Of a stretch of DNA of 4,596 nt, positions 1 through 4,596 are shown one piece after another. The position numbers and the translations under genes are program-made. The stretch comes from a virus (Duplodnaviria > Heunggongvirae > Uroviricota > Caudoviricetes), in the IMG/VR virus record IMGVR_UViG_2734482571_000008, one strand, 5' to 3'. Each line of letters opens with the position of its first letter. Positions within the stretch are counted from its first letter, which is position 1. Under the pieces are notes generated by a model, which had not been told where the DNA came from, searched no databases, and saw nothing but the letters and a program-made list of their open reading frames with translations.

Positions 1-753
1 TTTTCTGCTCATTATTAGCTCCTTCTGATGCCATTCTATTTCAGGAAGGAGTGTCCGTTAAACTCAGGCTACCTCAGGTTATTCGCTTCTGGGCATGGGC
101 GGATCAACAAATGATAGACGGTAATGCAGATTGTAACGCTCGCGGCGTTACAAAAAGTGCAATAGATCGCATCACTTTTATGTCTGGTTTTGCTGATGCG
201 TTAATTCAGGTTGGATGGCTGGTCGAAAATGACGGAGGGCTTTCTCTACCTAACTTTGAACGTCATAACGGAAAAAGCTCTAAAAAAAACGGGCGGTTAC
301 AAACGAGCGAGTAACAAAAATACGCGAACTGAAACGAAAAGGTAACGCTGCCAGCGTTACACAAACGGATCAAAAAGCGTTACCAGAGGAAGAGGAAGAG
401 GAAGATCTAAATACTGATCTCCCCCTCGCCAAAAACGAGCGTCTAAAAAATTCGAGCCGGAGGCTATTGAGCTGCCCGATTGGTTGCCGGAAACACTCTG
501 GCATGAGTGGGTCCGGTTCAGACAGGCATTGCGAAAACCGATTCGAACGGAGCAGGGCGCTAACGGGGCGATACGGGAACTGGAAAAATTCCGTCAGCAG
601 GGTTTTACACCTGAGCAGGTGATTCGACACAGCATCGCCAATGAATACCAGGGCCTGTTCGCGCCGAAAGGTGTTCGGCCTGAGACGTTGCTCCGACAGG
701 TTAACACCGTCTCGTTGCCGGACAGTGCGATCCCGCCAGGCTTCAGGGGGTAA
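1..753 (+). pseudogene. Phage replication protein, YdaU-like N-terminal region joined to a DnaT-like C-terminal domain; 5'-partial (starts upstream of window) and split across three reading frames by two apparent 1-nt deletions in poly-A tracts
   Basis: Frame 3 is open from the window edge to a stop at 312-314. Frame 2 is open from 284 through an acidic (GAGGAA)3-encoded linker (VTKIRELKRKGNAASVTQTDQKALPEEEEEEDL...). Frame 1 is open from 418 to a stop at 751-753 and encodes ...ELPDWLPETLWHEW...LLRQVNTVSLPDSAIPPGFRG, which closely matches the C-terminus of E. coli primosomal protein DnaT as I recall it (...PDWQPD...RDVNTVSEPDSQIPPGFRG). The frame switches coincide with A8 (282-289) and A6 (445-450). 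Adding one A at each gives a continuous ORF. The position immediately upstream of a dnaC paralog mirrors the host dnaT-dnaC operon. Confidence 0.6.
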
Positions 754-759
754 CGGACC

Positions 760-1196
760 ATGAAAAATATTGCGACAGGCGGCGTTCTGGAACGCATCCG
801 CCGACTGACCCCGCCACATGTAACCGCCCCATTCAGAACGGTAGCGGAGTGGCGCGAGTGGCAACTTGCTGAAGGCCAGAAACGTAGCGAGGAGATCAAC
901 CGCCTGAATCGCCAGTTGCGGGTGGAAAAAATTCTGAATCGCTCAGGCATCCAGCCGTTGCACCGTAAATGCTCGTTTGCGAATTACCAGGTGCAGAACG
1001 ACGGCCAGCGATACGCGTTAAGCCAGGCGAAATCCATCGCCGATGAACTGATGACCGGGTGTACAAATTTTGCGTTCAGCGGAAAACCTGGTACCGGGAA
1101 GAATCACTTAGCGGCAGCTATCGGGAATCGCCTGCTGAAAGACGGTCAGACAGTGATTGTGGTTACCGTGGCTGATGTTATGAGCGCCCTGCACGC
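760..1196 (+). CDS. dnaC: DnaC-family replicative helicase loader (AAA+ ATPase), prophage paralog (Rac YdaV-like); 3' end lost in the N gap
   Basis: ATG at 760, 6 nt after the upstream stop, with a G-rich SD-like run (aggggg, 742-747). The translation MKNIATGGVLERIRRL...RSGIQPLHRKCSFANYQVQNDGQRYALSQAKSIADEL...FAFSGKPGTGKNHLAAAIGNRLLKDGQTVIVVTVADVMSALH aligns along its length with E. coli DnaC as recalled, including Walker A GKPGTGKNH. The ORF-track extension to 1593 is an artifact of translating through the N run. Confidence 0.85.
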
Positions 1197-1537
1197 NNNN
1201 NNNNNNNNNNNNNNNNNNNNNNNNNNNNNNNNNNNNNNNNNNNNNNNNNNNNNNNNNNNNNNNNNNNNNNNNNNNNNNNNNNNNNNNNNNNNNNNNNNNN
1301 NNNNNNNNNNNNNNNNNNNNNNNNNNNNNNNNNNNNNNNNNNNNNNNNNNNNNNNNNNNNNNNNNNNNNNNNNNNNNNNNNNNNNNNNNNNNNNNNNNNN
1401 NNNNNNNNNNNNNNNNNNNNNNNNNNNNNNNNNNNNNNNNNNNNNNNNNNNNNNNNNNNNNNNNNNNNNNNNNNNNNNNNNNNNNNNNNNNNNNNNNNNN
1501 NNNNNNNNNNNNNNNNNNNNNNNNNNNNNNNNNNNNN
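1197..1537. other. Run of 341 N: assembly or scaffold gap, or masked sequence
   Basis: Uninterrupted n characters from 1197 to 1537. A DnaC-like protein of about 245 aa starting at 760 would end near 1500, so the gap plausibly hides the 3' end of that gene plus a short intergenic spacer. Confidence 0.95.
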
Positions 1538-1553
1538 AGTTTCAGGAGGATTT

Positions 1554-1976
1554 ATGGCGAAACCTTTTACTCCCGAACAGCGGGAAGAACTGAAGACGCG
1601 AATTGTGGAACTCGTGCATCAGGACGGTCGGGTCACGATTCGGCAGTTGTCAGATGAAACAGGTATCAGTCGTGCGTCTGTCGGTCGCTTATGCATAGAA
1701 CTGGTCGCAAGTGGTGATGTATATAATTCTGGCTACGGCTTATTCCCGTCTGAACAGGCTCGCAAGGACTGGCAAAGCGCCCGCAAAAAACTCTCGAGAG
1801 TAAAGGTGAGGAAACCGGTTGTTGTTGATCCGGACCTTATCTGGTCATTACCTGACGGAGAAATACGCCGCTACGACAGGCGCCTGAATATAATCTGTCG
1901 CGAGTGCCGGAAGAGCGAAGCTATGCAGCGTGTACTGGCTTTCTATCAGGGTAATTTTCAGGAGGCGATACTGTGA
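1554..1976 (+). CDS. Hypothetical protein, 140 aa, with a probable N-terminal winged-helix/HTH DNA-binding domain; occupies the position of Rac ydaW / lambda ren
   Basis: Strong SD aggagga (1544-1550) ahead of ATG 1554. The N-terminal segment RVTIRQLSDETGISRASVGRLCIELVASGDV has an HTH-like pattern. The C-terminal part is basic with a CRECRK motif. The stop TGA (1974-1976) directly abuts the next ATG. No confident family assignment from sequence alone. Confidence 0.6.
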   Translation: MAKPFTPEQREELKTRIVELVHQDGRVTIRQLSDETGISRASVGRLCIELVASGDVYNSGYGLFPSEQARKDWQSARKKLSRVKVRKPVVVDPDLIWSLPDGEIRRYDRRLNIICRECRKSEAMQRVLAFYQGNFQEAIL

Positions 1977-2034
1977 ATGAAATTAGCTATCAGGCTTCAA
2001 TTACCGCTGGCATTCGCATCAAAGGAGAGGAGCA

Positions 2035-2390
2035 TGGAAATAAAACCAGAAGATGAGTTAAGCAATATCGTTTTATTTCCGGTAAAAGAGGATGACCCTC
2101 GTAATCAGGTTAATTTTCTTTATGAGCCATCGGAAAGACCATATTGCCATCACGCCTCTGTACGGGTTGACGAAAAAGAGCGTCAGGTCCGCTGTAAAAT
2201 CTGCGGTGCGGTTGTGGAGCCGTTTGACTGGATGCTCTCTGTGGCAAAAAGAGAAACCAGACTGGCAGATGATGTAAGGCTATTGCGCCAGGAGGAACAG
2301 GAAAGGCGGAGAAATATAGAAAAGCTGATACAGATTGAGCGTAACGCGAAAGCGCGGATACGCAGGGCGACAAAATCCAGAACTGAATAA
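2035..2390 (+). CDS. Hypothetical protein, about 118 aa, with a putative Zn-ribbon-like motif (CHH-x16-CxxC) followed by a charged, probably coiled-coil, C-terminal helix; an alternative in-frame start at 1977 would give 137 aa
   Basis: ORF 1977..2390 in the track. The internal ATG at 2035 is preceded by a strong SD (aggagagga, 2023-2031), which makes it the more likely start. Motif PYCHHASVRVDEKERQVRCKICG, then RLADDVRLLRQEEQERRRNIEKLIQIERNAKARIRR. Function unknown. Confidence 0.55.
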
Positions 2391-2537
2391 TTAAATTTAG
2401 CACTGTTAAAAATTTAATCCTTAACCGGAGGGATTTCTGCACCCTCAAATCATCAGGAGACCACCCGAAAGGGCGGGGAGCAGTCACACATCTGTTTCCG
2501 ATAGCCCCGTTCTAATGCTACACTCTTTGATATTTTT

Positions 2538-3224
2538 ATGACCCCAATAAACATATTTATGACAGTTGCTGATTTCAAACGGCCCAAATTGGAGCTCCCA
2601 AACGGGGCAAACAAACTACTACTGCACTCTTGCTGTGCTCCATGTTCCGGTGAGGTGATGGAGGCGCTTCAGGCCTCGGGAATCGACTACACCATCTTTT
2701 TCTACAACCCGAACATTCATCCTCAGAAAGAGTATTTAATTCGTAAGGATGAGAATATTCGCTTTGCTGAACAACACGGCGTGCCGTTTATTGATGCTGA
2801 TTACGACACAGACAACTGGTTTGAACGAGCCAAAGGAATGGAATGGGAGCCCGAACGAGGGATCCGTTGCACCATGTGTTTTGACATGCGTTTTGAGCGG
2901 ACAGCGCTGTACGCCGCTGAAAATGGTTTCAGTGTGATCAGCAGTTCACTGGGCATTTCACGCTGGAAAAATATGCAGCAGGTTAACGACTGTGGGCGGC
3001 GAGCCGTCGCGCATTATCCGGGCATGGTGTACTGGGATTATAACTGGCGCAAGCAGGGCGGCTCGTCCCGTATGATTGAAATCAGCAAGCGCGAAAAATT
3101 CTATCAGCAGGAATATTGTGGCTGTGTGTATTCTCTGCGCGATACCAATCTACACCGCAAATCTCAGGGACGCCCTCTTATCAAAATTGGTCAACTCCAC
3201 TACGGTAAAGAAGAGAAGGAGTGA
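2538..3224 (+). CDS. queH: Epoxyqueuosine reductase QueH (DUF208 family, cobalamin-independent oQ to Q reductase)
   Basis: The translation carries motifs I recognise as QueH hallmarks: [40 protein letters not shown], and later Cys pairs RCTMCFDM and EYCGCVYS, consistent with an Fe-S/metal site. Length 228 aa is typical of the family. The start is uncertain (ATG 2538 or ATG 2559) and neither has a clear SD. Confidence 0.8.
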
Positions 3225-3245
3225 TTTTATGGGGCACCTTTCTGA

Positions 3246-3275
3246 TTGATTTCATATTGGCGAGGTAAGTAGAAT
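3246..3275 (+). promoter_or_regulatory. Putative sigma70 promoter of the mok/hok transcript: -35 TTGATT (3246-3251), 18-bp spacer, -10 TAGAAT (3270-3275); predicted TSS near 3283
   Basis: Hexamers read directly from the sequence. The downstream leader gcgggtgcttgaggctatctgc... resembles the 5' end of plasmid R1 hok mRNA (ggcgcuugaggcuuucugcc) as I recall it. Confidence 0.4.
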
Positions 3276-3324
3276 GACTGCGGGTGCTTGAGGCTATCTG
3301 CTTCAGGCATGAACACCAAAAGGC

Positions 3325-3402
3325 AGATAGAGAAAAGCCCCAGTTAACATTACGCGTCCGGCAAGACGCTTAACATTAATCTGAGGCCAATTTCATGCTT
3401 TG
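3325..3402 (-). ncRNA. sok: Putative Sok-like antisense RNA, complementary to the mok/hok leader; boundaries approximate
   Basis: On the minus strand there is a promoter-like arrangement: -35 TTGCCT (complement of 3433-3438, overlapping the hok SD), 17-bp spacer, -10 TAACCT (complement of 3410-3415), predicted TSS near 3402. The transcript would be antisense to the mok start region and to a leader segment (ccccagttaacattacgcgtccggcaagacgcttaacatta) that resembles the sok target region of R1 hok mRNA. It contains a small hairpin gcgtc/gacgc (3354-3369) flanked by direct repeats of ttaacatta (3344-3352, 3370-3378). Confidence 0.35.
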
Positions 3403-3607
3403 CACATGTAGGTTAGCCTCTTACATGCCGAAAGGCAAGGAGAAGCAGGCTATGAAGCAGCAAAAGGCGATGTTAATCGCCCTGATCGTCATCTGTTTAA
3501 CCGTCATAGTGACGGCACTGGTAACGAGGAAAGACCTCTGTGAGGTACGAATCCGAACCGGCCAGACGGAGGTCGCTGTCTTCGTAGACTACGAATCCAG
3601 GAAGTAA
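3395..3607 (+). CDS. mok: mok-like reading frame (modulator of killing), an in-frame N-terminal extension of hok, 70 aa
   Basis: ATG 3395 opens a frame that runs into hok. The extension MLCTCRLASYMPKGKEKQA resembles the N-terminus of E. coli MokC as recalled (MLNTCR...KVKEKRA-MKQHKAM...). Confidence 0.45.
   Translation: MLCTCRLASYMPKGKEKQAMKQQKAMLIALIVICLTVIVTALVTRKDLCEVRIRTGQTEVAVFVDYESRK
3452..3607 (+). CDS. hok: Hok/Gef-family type I toxin (small membrane-depolarising peptide), 51 aa, HokD/RelF-like
   Basis: SD aaggag (3437-3442), ATG 3452. MKQQKAMLIALIVICLTVIVTALVTRKDLCEVRIRTGQTEVAVFVDYESRK is near-identical over the first ~44 residues to HokD as recalled (MKQQKAMLIALIVICLTVIVTALVTRKDLCEVRIRTGQTEVAVFTAYEPEE), diverging only in the last residues. 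Single transmembrane helix plus conserved Cys and periplasmic tail. Confidence 0.88.
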   Translation: MKQQKAMLIALIVICLTVIVTALVTRKDLCEVRIRTGQTEVAVFVDYESRK

Positions 3608-3615
3608 GAGTGACC

Positions 3616-3643
3616 GGGCGGGGAGCTGATCCCATCCCCGCCC
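3616..3643 (+). other. Perfect 9-bp GC-rich inverted repeat (gggcgggga / tccccgccc, 10-nt loop) immediately 3' of the hok stop; probable structural element of the hok mRNA 3' region
   Basis: The arms are exact reverse complements. No U-run follows, so it is not itself an intrinsic terminator. Confidence 0.45.
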
Positions 3644-3682
3644 ACCTCTGATGTGTCAGGCATCCTCAACGCACCCGCACTT

Positions 3683-3730
3683 AACCCGCCCATCGCTGTG
3701 ATCTCTCAGCGTTTCGGCGGGTTTTTTGTT
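3683..3730 (+). terminator. Rho-independent terminator for the mok/hok transcript
   Basis: Outer stem aacccgcc (3683-3690) pairs with ggcgggtt (3716-3723) and encloses an inner stem cgctg/cagcg (3694-3698 / 3707-3711). A T6 run (3722-3727) follows. The opposite strand has no U-tract, so it is orientation-specific. Confidence 0.65.
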
Positions 3731-3747
3731 GTTTATTTCCGGTGAAT

Positions 3748-3775
3748 TTGATTCGCGCACCTTCGCAGATAGAAT
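3748..3775 (+). promoter_or_regulatory. Putative sigma70 promoter for the downstream genes: -35 TTGATT (3748-3753), 16-bp spacer, -10 TAGAAT (3770-3775)
   Basis: Hexamers read directly. It lies just after the hok terminator and about 80 nt upstream of the ATG at 3857. It uses the same -35 and -10 hexamers as the hok promoter at 3246-3275. Confidence 0.35.
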
Positions 3776-3856
3776 CGACTCACTTAAGTAGCGCGCAGGG
3801 AGAAGAGGGATGGACCCCGAACAGGGGAGAGCTATTTATCTGGAAGGATTCTGAAG

Positions 3857-4144
3857 ATGAAAATCGAAGAATTGCGTGAAATTTTTAGTGAAAATGGCCT
3901 CTATGCTGTGCGCGTTGAGAATGGAGCGATTGTCAGCCATTGCCGCATTAGATGTTTGCAATCTCAACAAAGGAAGAGCGGTGCTGTGTTATTTTATTTT
4001 TGTAATGGACTTCTGACGGACGGTTTTATTTTGCGTGAGGACGAATTTGTCACATCATTACGGGTTTTGAAAGAGATTGGTTTTAAGGCTGGTTTTCTGC
4101 TTTTGCTGAAGAATAAACTCATCTACAATCTTGAGCAGGATTGA
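3857..4144 (+). CDS. Hypothetical protein, 95 aa; low-GC moron-like ORF, positionally equivalent to rem downstream of hokD in Qin (positional inference only)
   Basis: SD ggaagga (3842-3848), ATG 3857, stop TGA 4142-4144. GC content is about 38% in the first 60 nt by my count, visibly lower than neighbouring genes. No recognisable motif. Confidence 0.45.
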   Translation: MKIEELREIFSENGLYAVRVENGAIVSHCRIRCLQSQQRKSGAVLFYFCNGLLTDGFILREDEFVTSLRVLKEIGFKAGFLLLLKNKLIYNLEQD

Positions 4145-4182
4145 ACTCCTGCTGTGTAACACCGTGCCACCGGAGAAAGCCG

Positions 4183-4536
4183 ATGGCACATATACAACTG
4201 GTCAAACAAACCTCTTCCGGATTACTTCTCCCGGCGACGCCGGAGAGTTGCGATTTTCTGCATCAAATCAAAATAGGTGAGTGGATACACGCAGACTTTA
4301 AGCGTGTGTGTAACTACGCATTCCACAAGCGTTTTTTCAAACTCCTGCAACTGGGTTTCGATTACTGGACTCCGGTCGGTGGGGCGATCACGCCTCGCGA
4401 ACGAAAACTGGTGTCCGGTTTCGTTGATTACCTGTGTGAATCAGTAGGCCGGGAACATACGCCAGCTCTGAGCGAAGCCGCAGAGCAATTGAGGTGTACT
4501 GGCAATAGCGGACACTACCATTTGTTCTTTTTTTAA
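4183..4536 (+). CDS. Hypothetical lambdoid-phage protein, about 117 aa as written; possibly the N-terminal part of a longer gene truncated at a T7 run
   Basis: SD ggag (4172-4175), ATG 4183 (MAHIQLVKQTSSGLLLPATPESCDFLHQIKIGEWIHADFKRVCNYAFHKRFF...). The track's TTG start at 4141 overlaps the previous gene and lacks an SD. The stop TAA (4534-4536) is formed at the end of T7 (4528-4534), and the -1 frame is open from 4509 to the window end. Confidence 0.5.
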   Translation: MAHIQLVKQTSSGLLLPATPESCDFLHQIKIGEWIHADFKRVCNYAFHKRFFKLLQLGFDYWTPVGGAITPRERKLVSGFVDYLCESVGREHTPALSEAAEQLRCTGNSGHYHLFFF

Positions 4537-4596
4537 GCAGCCATCTGATGATATTTTTCCCTGAAGGCTGCCGGGGAGATATTCCCCAGACGAGAG

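Follow-up and report, generated by a model that had tools for sequence, protein, structure and literature searches.

A ren-like DUF977 gene and a neighbouring gene for a predicted zinc-ribbon protein with separate histories in a decayed lambdoid prophage

Ren, DUF977 and the gene that follows ydaV

The genetic definition of ren, a gene of phage lambda, is reportedly the work of Toothman and Herskowitz in 1980. The gene shares its PR transcript with O and P, and two-hybrid assays revealed an interaction between Ren and the Rex proteins (bioRxiv 10.1101/2021.04.19.439022). Lambda Ren (NP_040633) is 96 aa long, and matches the PHROG 142 family, annotated as 'Ren-like exclusion protein', with E 1.6e-41. 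Prophages of E. coli, Shigella and Salmonella encode proteins known as Pfam DUF977 or 'LygF' proteins. The latter term, which names a locus in a region specific to Salmonella Enteritidis, was met in the literature searched only in Salmonella genome announcements, and searches for LygF, DUF977, Ren-like and the accessions of both proteins described below returned no functional study of either. In the Rac prophage of E. coli K-12 the slot after ydaV is filled by YdaW, a protein with an N-terminal winged helix-turn-helix (wHTH). In an over-expression screen YdaW scored as a blocker of RcaT, the toxin of retron-Sen2 (bioRxiv 10.1101/2020.06.22.160242).

The stretch of DNA analyzed, hereafter the window, is 4,596 nt long and contains an IS600-bracketed, decayed lambdoid prophage of the Rac/Qin type. 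Positions 1538-4489 are 99.8% identical to positions 9001-11952 of a relative (L001), positions 76-1196 are 98.3% identical to L001 positions 7570-8692. Since ydaV is annotated in RefSeq at 8256-9002 of L001, the gene at 793-1539 of the window (+ strand; bases 1197-1537 are masked as N) is ydaV, encoding a DnaC-like replication ATPase. Two intact ORFs follow on the same strand, gene A (1554-1976) and gene B (2034-2390), both at the coordinates given in the original prediction, both with many database relatives, and both preceded, as had been pointed out, by a Shine-Dalgarno sequence. Neither inside A or B nor between them does the coding (+) strand contain a promoter-like or terminator-like site. 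The native PR promoter is severed from the locus by IS600, and expression of the two genes at their present location is therefore uncertain.

Gene A encodes 140 aa, and its Shine-Dalgarno sequence, AGGAGG at 1544-1549 (+ strand), was read from the sequence 4 nt before the ATG. The protein had been regarded as not assignable to any family. It matches Pfam DUF977 (PF06163) with E 1.1e-33 and 116.5 bits, well above the gathering threshold (22.1), and covers the model end to end (positions 1-134 of 134); residues 1-139 match PHROG 142 with E 2.7e-44. RefSeq calls it 'DUF977 family protein' (WP_001118169.1), the label DUF977/'LygF' is carried by hundreds of its close relatives, and A is a typical member of this group, no difference being seen. 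Having 848 database relatives, A is not a chance ORF. The HTH-like segment suspected at the N-terminus is real: residues 7-64 (1572-1745, + strand) match the Pfam models HTH_24 (26 bits, cut-off 21.9), HTH_IclR and MarR_2, are modelled by AF2 with a pLDDT of about 90, and are paired by Foldseek with GntR, MarR, IclR and MntR winged helices at a probability of about 1.0. Model confidence is low in the C-terminal half (pLDDT 52-65). Sequence searches of the PDB with A gave weak wHTH matches only, searches of NCBIfam with A and B nothing informative.

A and lambda Ren are members of the same PHROG family, and both feature an N-terminal winged helix. Both genes reside in the rightward early operon directly after replication genes, ren after P and A after ydaV, in line with the original placement of the locus in the lambda ren slot. 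The two proteins have in common a C-terminal motif, N-[IL]-[IV]-x-x-E-C-R-x-S-x-x-M-x-R-V-L-A-x-Y, near-invariant in the alignment of A homologues. In A it spans residues 112-131 (1887-1946, + strand; NIICRECRKSEAMQRVLAFY), 12 of 20 residues (60%) being identical to lambda Ren 73-92 (E 3e-7). In contrast, overall identity is 25%, A is longer, with about 40 additional linker residues (60-100) and an extended C-terminus, and Ren remains below detection by the DUF977 model, to which A is a full match. Judged by its sequence, A is the ren homologue of the present prophage, with DUF977 matched in full. Thousands of E. coli and Shigella prophages have DUF977/'LygF' genes, and these can be annotated as coding for long-form Ren homologues. 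The original prediction had named clear homology to known lambdoid housekeeping proteins as grounds against it; A does show clear homology to a known lambdoid protein, although Ren is an accessory rather than a housekeeping protein.

By analogy with lambda, we infer that A, transcribed after the replication genes, probably acts like Ren in early replication, enabling the phage to evade the abortive exclusion of the Rex type which a resident prophage exerts. Protein contacts, DNA binding through the winged helix, or both, would be the likely route. An exclusion role, proposed at the outset for the two genes together, is plausible for A, though only by homology to Ren. The transfer is weak even so, because Ren misses DUF977 and overall identity is low, and the annotated prophage relative differs from lambda in lacking the rex genes (rexAB) in its RefSeq annotation. 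A defence or anti-defence role of B found no support, and neither protein corresponds to a known defence-system model in PADLOC: matches of A were at the level of any wHTH and of chance (E at least 0.0017), and B had none. Extending the retron-blocker phenotype of YdaW to A was rejected, because YdaW falls in another family, PHROG 630, matches PHROG 142 no better than E 2e-4, and is barely similar to A (BLASTP E 0.054 over 37 residues). The YdaW result may be taken as a lead for anti-abortive-infection activity among the proteins encoded in the slot after ydaV.

Start, anatomy and family of gene B

The stop of A had been described as abutting the start of the next gene. The TGA is indeed followed by an ATG at 1977, which opens a 137-aa ORF, but the 118-aa protein starts at the ATG at 2034, 57 nt further on. 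The 137-aa reading was rejected because the start at 2034 is conserved in all B homologues aligned, the alignment to PHROG 1621 begins at residue 20 of the longer ORF, the RefSeq product is 118 aa long (WP_001343130.1), and the commonest mosaic breakpoint (2004-2006) falls within the extension (1977-2033). A and B are consequently close, but not abutting. The Shine-Dalgarno sequence of B, AAGGAG at 2022-2027 (+ strand), is located 6 nt before the ATG.

B (2034-2390, + strand) is predicted to comprise an acidic N-terminal tail and a zinc ribbon, followed by a coiled-coil helix. The predicted zinc knuckles, C38-x-H40 and C54-x-x-C57 (2145-2204, + strand), are supported by invariant columns and by distant representatives of the family; the four residues are invariant among 35 B homologues with identities down to 45%. 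The motif had been given as CHH...CxxC, which holds true except for H39, a residue that is not conserved, the ligand pattern being CxH. The highly charged helix announced after the motif corresponds to residues 63-117 (2220-2384, + strand), modelled as a single long helix (AF2 pLDDT 84-95). The helix shows heptad periodicity, the strongest hydrophobic period being 3.5, carries a net charge of +8 in its last 28 residues, and includes the invariant stretch LRxEExxRRxNIEKLIQIERNAKARIR.

B matches PHROG 1621, a family with no described function, along its whole length (E 5.1e-56, profile positions 1-120 of 134). A search with the B profile retrieved 1578 clusters at 50% identity, which shows that B is not a chance ORF, and that PHROG 1621 belongs to a much larger phage family. 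Among 123 distant representatives of this family the pattern Cx[HC]...CxxC is kept in 115, and ExNxKxR is found at a fixed spacing of 40-51 aa in 80. The family is thus widespread and strongly conserved, and has no functional or structural precedent: there was no Pfam match above the cut-off, Foldseek comparisons with PDB structures and BFVD viral models gave nothing at E <= 0.001, and a PDB sequence search with the B profile gave a chance match to EzrA only.

The best match of B in both Pfam and Foldseek, though a weak one, is the TFIIB-type/S27e-type zinc ribbon, like B a two-knuckle beta-ribbon of about 25 residues. The score against TFIIB (PF08271) is 21.1 bits, below the cut-off of 29, and the Foldseek match to the N-terminal ribbon of TFIIB (1PFT) is non-significant (E 0.42). 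The B ribbon further differs in the first knuckle, which is CxH and not CxxC, and the 55-residue helix has no counterpart in TFIIB-type ribbons. In lambda, the small zinc protein encoded directly after ea22 is Ea8.5 (PF20735), a homeodomain/zinc-finger hybrid (PDB 2M7A, 2M7B), and this makes it a positional analogue of B. Local similarity is also visible (CHHASVRVDE in B, CRHHEGVYVDE in Ea8.5). Ea8.5 homologues, however, keep CxxH rather than CxH and lack VxVDE, and the distance to the second knuckle is about 55 residues in Ea8.5, 13 in B. Homology was rejected on the basis of these differences in ligand pattern and spacing, of an hhalign probability of 4%, and of the lack of a match of B to PF20735; 2M7A and 2M7B do not figure among the 50 best PDB Foldseek matches listed. 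Two more candidates were discarded. DksA/TraR zinc-finger coiled-coil proteins have the reverse domain order, with the coiled coil before the C4 finger, whereas in B the ribbon precedes the helix, and B has no match to PF01258 at E <= 1. The zinc-binding protein YdaE of the Rac prophage could not be aligned to B.

From this anatomy we infer a dimeric early regulator, binding either nucleic acids or a host protein. The acidic tail would be disordered, and the helix following the CxH...CxxC ribbon would most likely dimerise as a coiled coil, presenting the conserved Arg/Lys-rich end ExNxKxRxRR. The role of B may be analogous to that of other small accessory proteins of the nin and exo-xis regions, rather than that of a defence system. 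A more ambitious view, in which the family constitutes a novel type of phage regulator or of host-takeover factor, would account for both the near-invariance of the helix across genera and the stand-alone spread of the gene by a target of universal occurrence, be it nucleic acid or a conserved piece of host machinery (RNA polymerase or the replisome, for instance); we consider it unlikely.

Distribution and mosaic boundaries of A and B

BLASTN segment boundaries in related loci define B as part of a mosaic module of about 450 bp (2005-2476, + strand), made up by the Shine-Dalgarno sequence, the gene and 45-85 nt of 3' flank. The left edge was found at 2004-2006 in 36 loci, 28-30 nt upstream of the B ATG; the right edge at 2434-2438 in 27 loci, and at 2476 in 49. 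B is hence a module complete in itself, ribosome-binding site included, and both the start of the 118-aa protein and the limits of the module are now defined.

A-like DNA was detected in 3617 of 5426 complete E. coli genomes, B in 1679, and a direct A-B junction in 966. Most of these genomes carry A without B. Counted as places, A-like DNA (5014) outnumbers B (2135), which means that B must be missing from at least 57% of the A-like loci. B was also surveyed in 80 viral contigs carrying 83 copies. A directly adjoins B in 42 copies, is separated from it by another gene in 25, and lies more than 1.5 kb upstream in 5; no A was present in the available 2.2-4 kb of upstream sequence of 9 copies, and upstream sequence was too short in the remaining 2. 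B is found behind ea22-like genes about as often as behind A. In phage ArgO145 and in Stx2a phages B is located in the leftward early region, where the gene before it is Ea22-like, and the Stx2a phages carry B without A. Where A and B are neighbours, A proteins vary from 54 to 100% identity next to B proteins which are at least 97% identical, and a variable A beside a near-constant B speaks against co-variation.

These data bear on the two-gene cassette of the original prediction, according to which the wHTH protein A would regulate or partner the zinc-ribbon protein B in superinfection exclusion or anti-defence. Frequent adjacency, both in complete genomes and in viral copies, location on the same strand only 57 nt apart with no promoter-like or terminator-like site of the coding strand in between, and residence in a region known as a site of accessory genes are all consistent with the cassette. 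Yet each gene is found without the other, so that co-occurrence does not hold in both directions; the two share no mosaic boundaries, the commonest breakpoint lying between them, just upstream of the B start; B is about as frequent after ea22-type ORFs, belongs to the opposite early operon in Stx phages, and resides beside Q elsewhere; the identity values show no co-variation; and PADLOC yielded nothing for B and chance-level matches for A. A functional module is accordingly unlikely, and the tight spacing of genes in the ren/nin region is no evidence of one. As far as context goes, some functional liaison of A and B in E. coli phages would be compatible with the common direct junction. We think it probable that the decayed Rac/Qin-type lambdoid prophage has in A and B two delayed-early accessory genes independent of each other, a ren homologue and a self-contained module, which became neighbours by mosaic recombination and do not form a functional cassette. 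In lambda-like prophages of E. coli and Shigella both are accessory early genes of an ordinary kind, moving independently, and their histories are separate.

Natural 'fusions' of DUF977 and B proteins (P0040, P0042 and P0060, each representing one sequence), considered as a stand-in for an A-B complex, were discarded as true fusions, being B-to-A recombination chimeras formed at short LRQ homology.

Gene B beside Q and the ea22-type relic

In other Enterobacterales, namely Erwinia, Photorhabdus, Yersinia, Phytobacter and Kluyvera, the B gene comes after NinG, RusA, YbcO or DUF968 genes, directly before Q, and no DUF977 gene is adjacent. In a distant lambdoid prophage B is located between MT-A70 and RusA/Q. 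B could be tied to late-gene control, as an accessory factor acting with Q, or on Q or the qut/late promoter region, and binding RNA or DNA through the Arg-rich end of the helix. The position of B as last gene before Q (PF06323 or PF06530) in the five genera and in related loci, with a start often overlapping the upstream stop, its location one gene away from a DUF968-Q fusion in a distant prophage, and its place, in a high-GC phage, within the final group of small early genes ahead of terminase and portal, fit this idea, as does conservation of the ExNxKxRxRR end. In E. coli phages, however, B either lies several kb from Q, with QueH, hok, DUF1367, DUF1364 and other genes in between, or belongs to the leftward operon; at least two unrelated Q families are found beside the same B family, and a pre-Q position may be no more than a sign of where the nin region ends. 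A link to late control is, on balance, quite unlikely, and the reading of B as an independent accessory module is preferred.

At its left edge the B module retains the terminal 24 nt of an ea22-type gene. Bases 2006-2029 are identical to the 24 coding nt with which lambda ea22 ends, and the whole relic of the ea22-type 3' end (2006-2056, + strand), encoding AGIRIKGEEHGNKTRR followed by a stop, is read in a frame other than that of B and overlaps the start of B by 23 nt. The Shine-Dalgarno sequence of B is embedded in this tail (codons K-G-E). In about 34 related loci an ea22-type tail closes the ORF upstream of B. B might on these grounds be viewed as a detached C-terminal domain of Ea22-type proteins, left over here from a degraded ea22-like gene, a view to which the identical 24-nt relic just before B, the ORFs with an ea22-type tail overlapping the B start, and rare in-frame Ea22-B fusion proteins (P0002 and P0242) lend some colour. 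But B has its own Shine-Dalgarno sequence, ATG and conserved N-terminus in genera in which no ea22-type gene is adjacent, the ea22-type ORF ends out of frame with B, and P0002, the fusion with cluster data, is a single sequence, to be set against the 610 and 3282 members of clusters of free-standing B proteins. Derivation of B from Ea22 is highly improbable.

Ea22 proteins feature a conserved '+GE' end, described as of unknown significance. The simplest explanation is that this end provides the gene that follows with a ribosome-binding site, and is a recombination boundary.

Gene starts and prophage setting

Both predicted ORFs are present in the window. Gene A, encoding a winged-helix protein of 140 aa, spans 1554-1976 (+ strand), with an AGGAGG 4 nt 5' of its ATG. 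The original prediction had the TGA of A abutting the start of a 118-aa protein: an abutting ATG is found at 1977, but it opens a 137-aa ORF, and the 118-aa protein (gene B, 2034-2390, + strand) starts instead at ATG 2034, behind an AAGGAG at 2022-2027. The 137-aa reading is ruled out, and the start fixed at 2034, by four results: this start is common to 35 of 35 aligned homologues, the PHROG 1621 alignment begins at residue 20 of the 137-aa ORF, the RefSeq product has 118 aa, and the commonest mosaic breakpoint (2004-2006) falls within the supposed extension (1977-2033).

E. coli FDAARGOS_943 carries a defective lambdoid prophage of the Rac/Qin type that matches window 1538-4489 at 99.8% identity and, with its replication-gene region, window 76-1196 at 98.3%; the window DNA is 99.7% identical to genomes already annotated. 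The annotated order in FDAARGOS_943 is repressor, cro, ydaT, O-like initiator, ydaV (DnaC-like), DUF977 gene, hypothetical, QueH, hokD, hypothetical, DUF1367, DUF1364 and DUF1133. The window ends (1-76 and 4490-4596) are 100% identical to ends of IS600 copies in the closest genome, and the DNA is therefore a prophage fragment (77-4489) bracketed by IS600. IS600 interrupts the O-like replication gene, ends DUF1367 prematurely at 4489, and leaves A and B cut off from their native PR promoter, so that their expression at this locus is uncertain. ORFs 51-314 and 484-753, in different frames, are O-like/primosomal initiator remnants (PHROG 2509, 6451 and 678), the first corresponding to the N-terminal part and the second to the C-terminal part of a single O-like initiator; since this gene is both frameshifted and IS-truncated, the prophage is replication-defective. 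Within the ydaV/DnaC-like gene, 341 bases (1197-1537) are masked as a run of N, which stops 17 nt short of the A start codon.

Directly 3' of B resides a QueH epoxyqueuosine reductase gene (2559-3224; PF02677, E 1.9e-65; PHROG 3217, 'unknown'), a tRNA-modification accessory gene in a lambdoid nin region. A complete hok/sok type I toxin-antitoxin locus (3282-3607) is made up by sok (3282-3457; Rfam, 117 bits) and a HokD-family toxin ORF (3452-3607; PF01848, E 4e-23).

Gene A and lambda ren

The A protein matches Pfam DUF977 from end to end (E 1.1e-33, 116.5 bits; cut-off 22.1) and PHROG 142, 'Ren-like exclusion protein' (E 2.7e-44), a PHROG shared with lambda Ren (from NC_001416; E 1.6e-41). 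In BLASTP, Ren residues 73-92 pair with A residues 112-131 (60% identity, E 3e-7), and a joint alignment sets in register the winged helix and the motif N-I/L-I/V-x-x-E-C-R-x-S-x-x-M-x-R-V-L-A-x-Y. The two proteins differ in that overall identity is 25%, and A features an extra linker of ~40 residues. Lambda Ren does not reach DUF977 in Pfam, and the A-Ren link therefore draws on profile (PHROG), motif and position, A having the place of ren directly 3' of the replication genes. A can now be tied to Ren as a ren homologue, being a typical member of a catalogued family; the ren slot had been correctly recognized in the original prediction, but the homology of A to ren had been missed. The HTH predicted in A is borne out by Pfam and by the AF2 model, in which residues 7-64 form a confident winged helix (pLDDT ~90) and residues 67-83 a further helix, the C-terminal third being poorly defined. 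Foldseek matches of the model are generic GntR/MarR/IclR/MntR winged helices only.

The ren gene was reportedly defined genetically, by Toothman and Herskowitz in 1980, as the gene for lambda escape from Rex exclusion. Going by family membership only, we commit to a Ren-like action for A, which would work as an early winged-helix protein at the replication stage, and would bind the excluder and/or DNA, thereby shielding the phage against abortive exclusion of the Rex type. Lambda ren shares the PR transcript with O and P, its product is thought to have a replication connection, and Ren interacts with Rex proteins in two-hybrid tests (10.1101/2021.04.19.439022). K-12 YdaW was found in a screen as a blocker of the retron-Sen2 toxin (10.1101/2020.06.22.160242). 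YdaW has its slot in common with A, but falls in PHROG 630 and is barely similar to A, and is thus only a lead.

Anatomy and family of gene B

Close relatives of B in Escherichia, Shigella, Salmonella, Klebsiella, Kluyvera, Serratia, Yersinia, Erwinia, Pluralibacter and Morganella, and those in the phage collection, are all annotated 'hypothetical protein'. Pfam gave a sub-threshold TFIIB ribbon match only (21.1 vs 29 bits), NCBIfam, PADLOC and PDB sequence searches gave no match, and Foldseek of the B model against PDB and BFVD gave none at E <= 0.001. A profile search over 1.84 billion representatives retrieved 1578 clusters at E <= 0.001, 242 of which at E <= 1e-10. Among 123 full-length representatives from the best 150 profile matches, Cx[HC]...CxxC is kept in 115 (H in 109), and ExNxKxR, located 40-51 residues from the ribbon, in 80. 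B is therefore part of a large phage family that is uncharacterised, and a typical member of a catalogued family lacking an assigned function.

The zinc motif and charged helix predicted for B are both recovered in the family alignment and in the AF2 model. Residues E6, L9, F15, P16, C38, H40, R50, C54, C57 and F64 are invariant in the alignment (35 sequences, down to 45% identity), as is nearly the whole of L84-R110 (LRxEExxRRxNIEKLIQIERNAKARIR). The model (mean pLDDT 76.6) has a low-confidence N-tail, a small beta ribbon carrying the CxH and CxxC knuckles, and a single helix (63-117, pLDDT 84-95), the hydrophobic positions of which have a strongest period of 3.5 residues. Net charge is -5 over residues 1-36 and +8 over residues 91-118. 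The simplest reading is that B may form a coiled-coil dimer that bears the zinc ribbons on one side and ends in a basic tip on the opposite side. From this anatomy, the ribbon-motif geometry fixed across the family, and the place of B among nin/exo-xis accessory genes, we commit to a mechanism in which a zinc-stabilised coiled-coil dimer would bind nucleic acid or a conserved host protein by its conserved basic end, and would act as a non-essential early regulator.

Neighbours and mosaic edges of gene B

Across 82 loci with a total of 85 B copies, ORFs of at least 40 codons were monitored upstream of B. Gene A is the upstream ORF in 42 copies (39 scored directly, 3 with the best ORF in an alternative frame overlapping the A 3' end); an ORF ending in an ea22-type tail is present in about 34, a different ORF in 6, and none in 3. 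In ArgO145 and Stx2a phages B is a gene of the leftward early region, where it follows an Ea22-like gene (PF13935), and DUF977 genes are absent from the vicinity. B is found 3' of NinG, RusA, YbcO or DUF968 in Kluyvera, Erwinia, Photorhabdus, Symbiopectobacterium, Pantoea, Yersinia, Phytobacter, Entomohabitans, Leclercia and Enterobacter, its start often overlapping the upstream stop; Ren-like wHTH genes, where these loci have them, map to the replication genes, further upstream. In each of these loci for which the downstream gene was scanned, an antiterminator Q (of either Pfam family) is directly 3' of B; this position in non-E. coli genera suggests that B could be linked to Q-dependent late control, which we regard as a weaker alternative to the early regulator proposed for B. 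In another lambdoid prophage, a more distant member is flanked by an MT-A70 methylase gene and RusA/Q; a high-GC member is found with small early genes that precede terminase and portal.

Of 5426 complete E. coli genomes, 3617 contain A-like DNA (5014 places), 1679 contain B (2135 places), and 966 cover at least 80% of a 291-nt A-B junction probe. Most B records (1596 of 1701) have a DNA identity of 95-99%; for A DNA, identity is mostly 80-95%, over the 3' two-thirds only. Beside B copies at least 97% identical, A protein identity ranges from 54% to 100%.

BLASTN segments over B begin at 2004-2006 in 36 related loci (other starts are 1848, 1694 and 1538), and stop at 2434-2438 in 27 loci and at 2476 in 49. 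By these shared edges, B is a ~450-bp module with its own ribosome-binding site. On the left, the module begins with the 3' end of an ea22-type gene: a relic at 2006-2056 reads AGIRIKGEEHGNKTRR* in a frame other than that of B, and the final 24 coding nt of lambda ea22 (product end ...SDAGIRIKGE*) are found unchanged at 2006-2029. Census, mosaic and identity data therefore make A-B adjacency frequent, not obligate in either direction. A and B have neither shared boundaries nor co-variation and, with a module edge between the genes and co-occurrence not obligate, the dedicated cassette originally proposed is not supported. No signs of a new system were found, and the finding is ordinary; the remaining point of interest is the function of B and its unusually conserved helix.

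The 24 nt coding for AGIRIKGE, the same in the window and in lambda ea22 (1048-1071, minus strand, of the lambda region), mark the commonest mosaic breakpoint. The C-terminal tripeptide '+GE' is conserved in Ea22 proteins, and described as 'of unknown significance' (PMC7093339); its coding sequence, AAAGGAGAG, doubles as the Shine-Dalgarno of the following gene. The 3' flank of B (2383-2476, ~94 nt) recurs alone elsewhere in ArgO145 (6658-6746 of that locus, 90% identity), and in an Actinobacillus phage under an 'Ead/Ea22-like' annotation (89.6%), and looks like another short boundary sequence common to mosaic modules.

Rare database chimeras (P0040, P0042, P0060, P0002, P0242) join B(1-86) to A (about 25 to end) at a short LRQ homology, B(1-72) to the A C-terminus, or Ea22-like N-termini in-frame to B, and point to frequent illegitimate or short-homology recombination in the region. 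Some viral contigs (L040, L051 and L084) have B in two copies separated by 1.5-1.7 kb, at 97-99% and 97-98% identity to the query. In L040 and L051 each copy is preceded by a separate ORF with an ea22-type tail; in L084 one copy is directly 3' of A, and the other is preceded by such an ORF.
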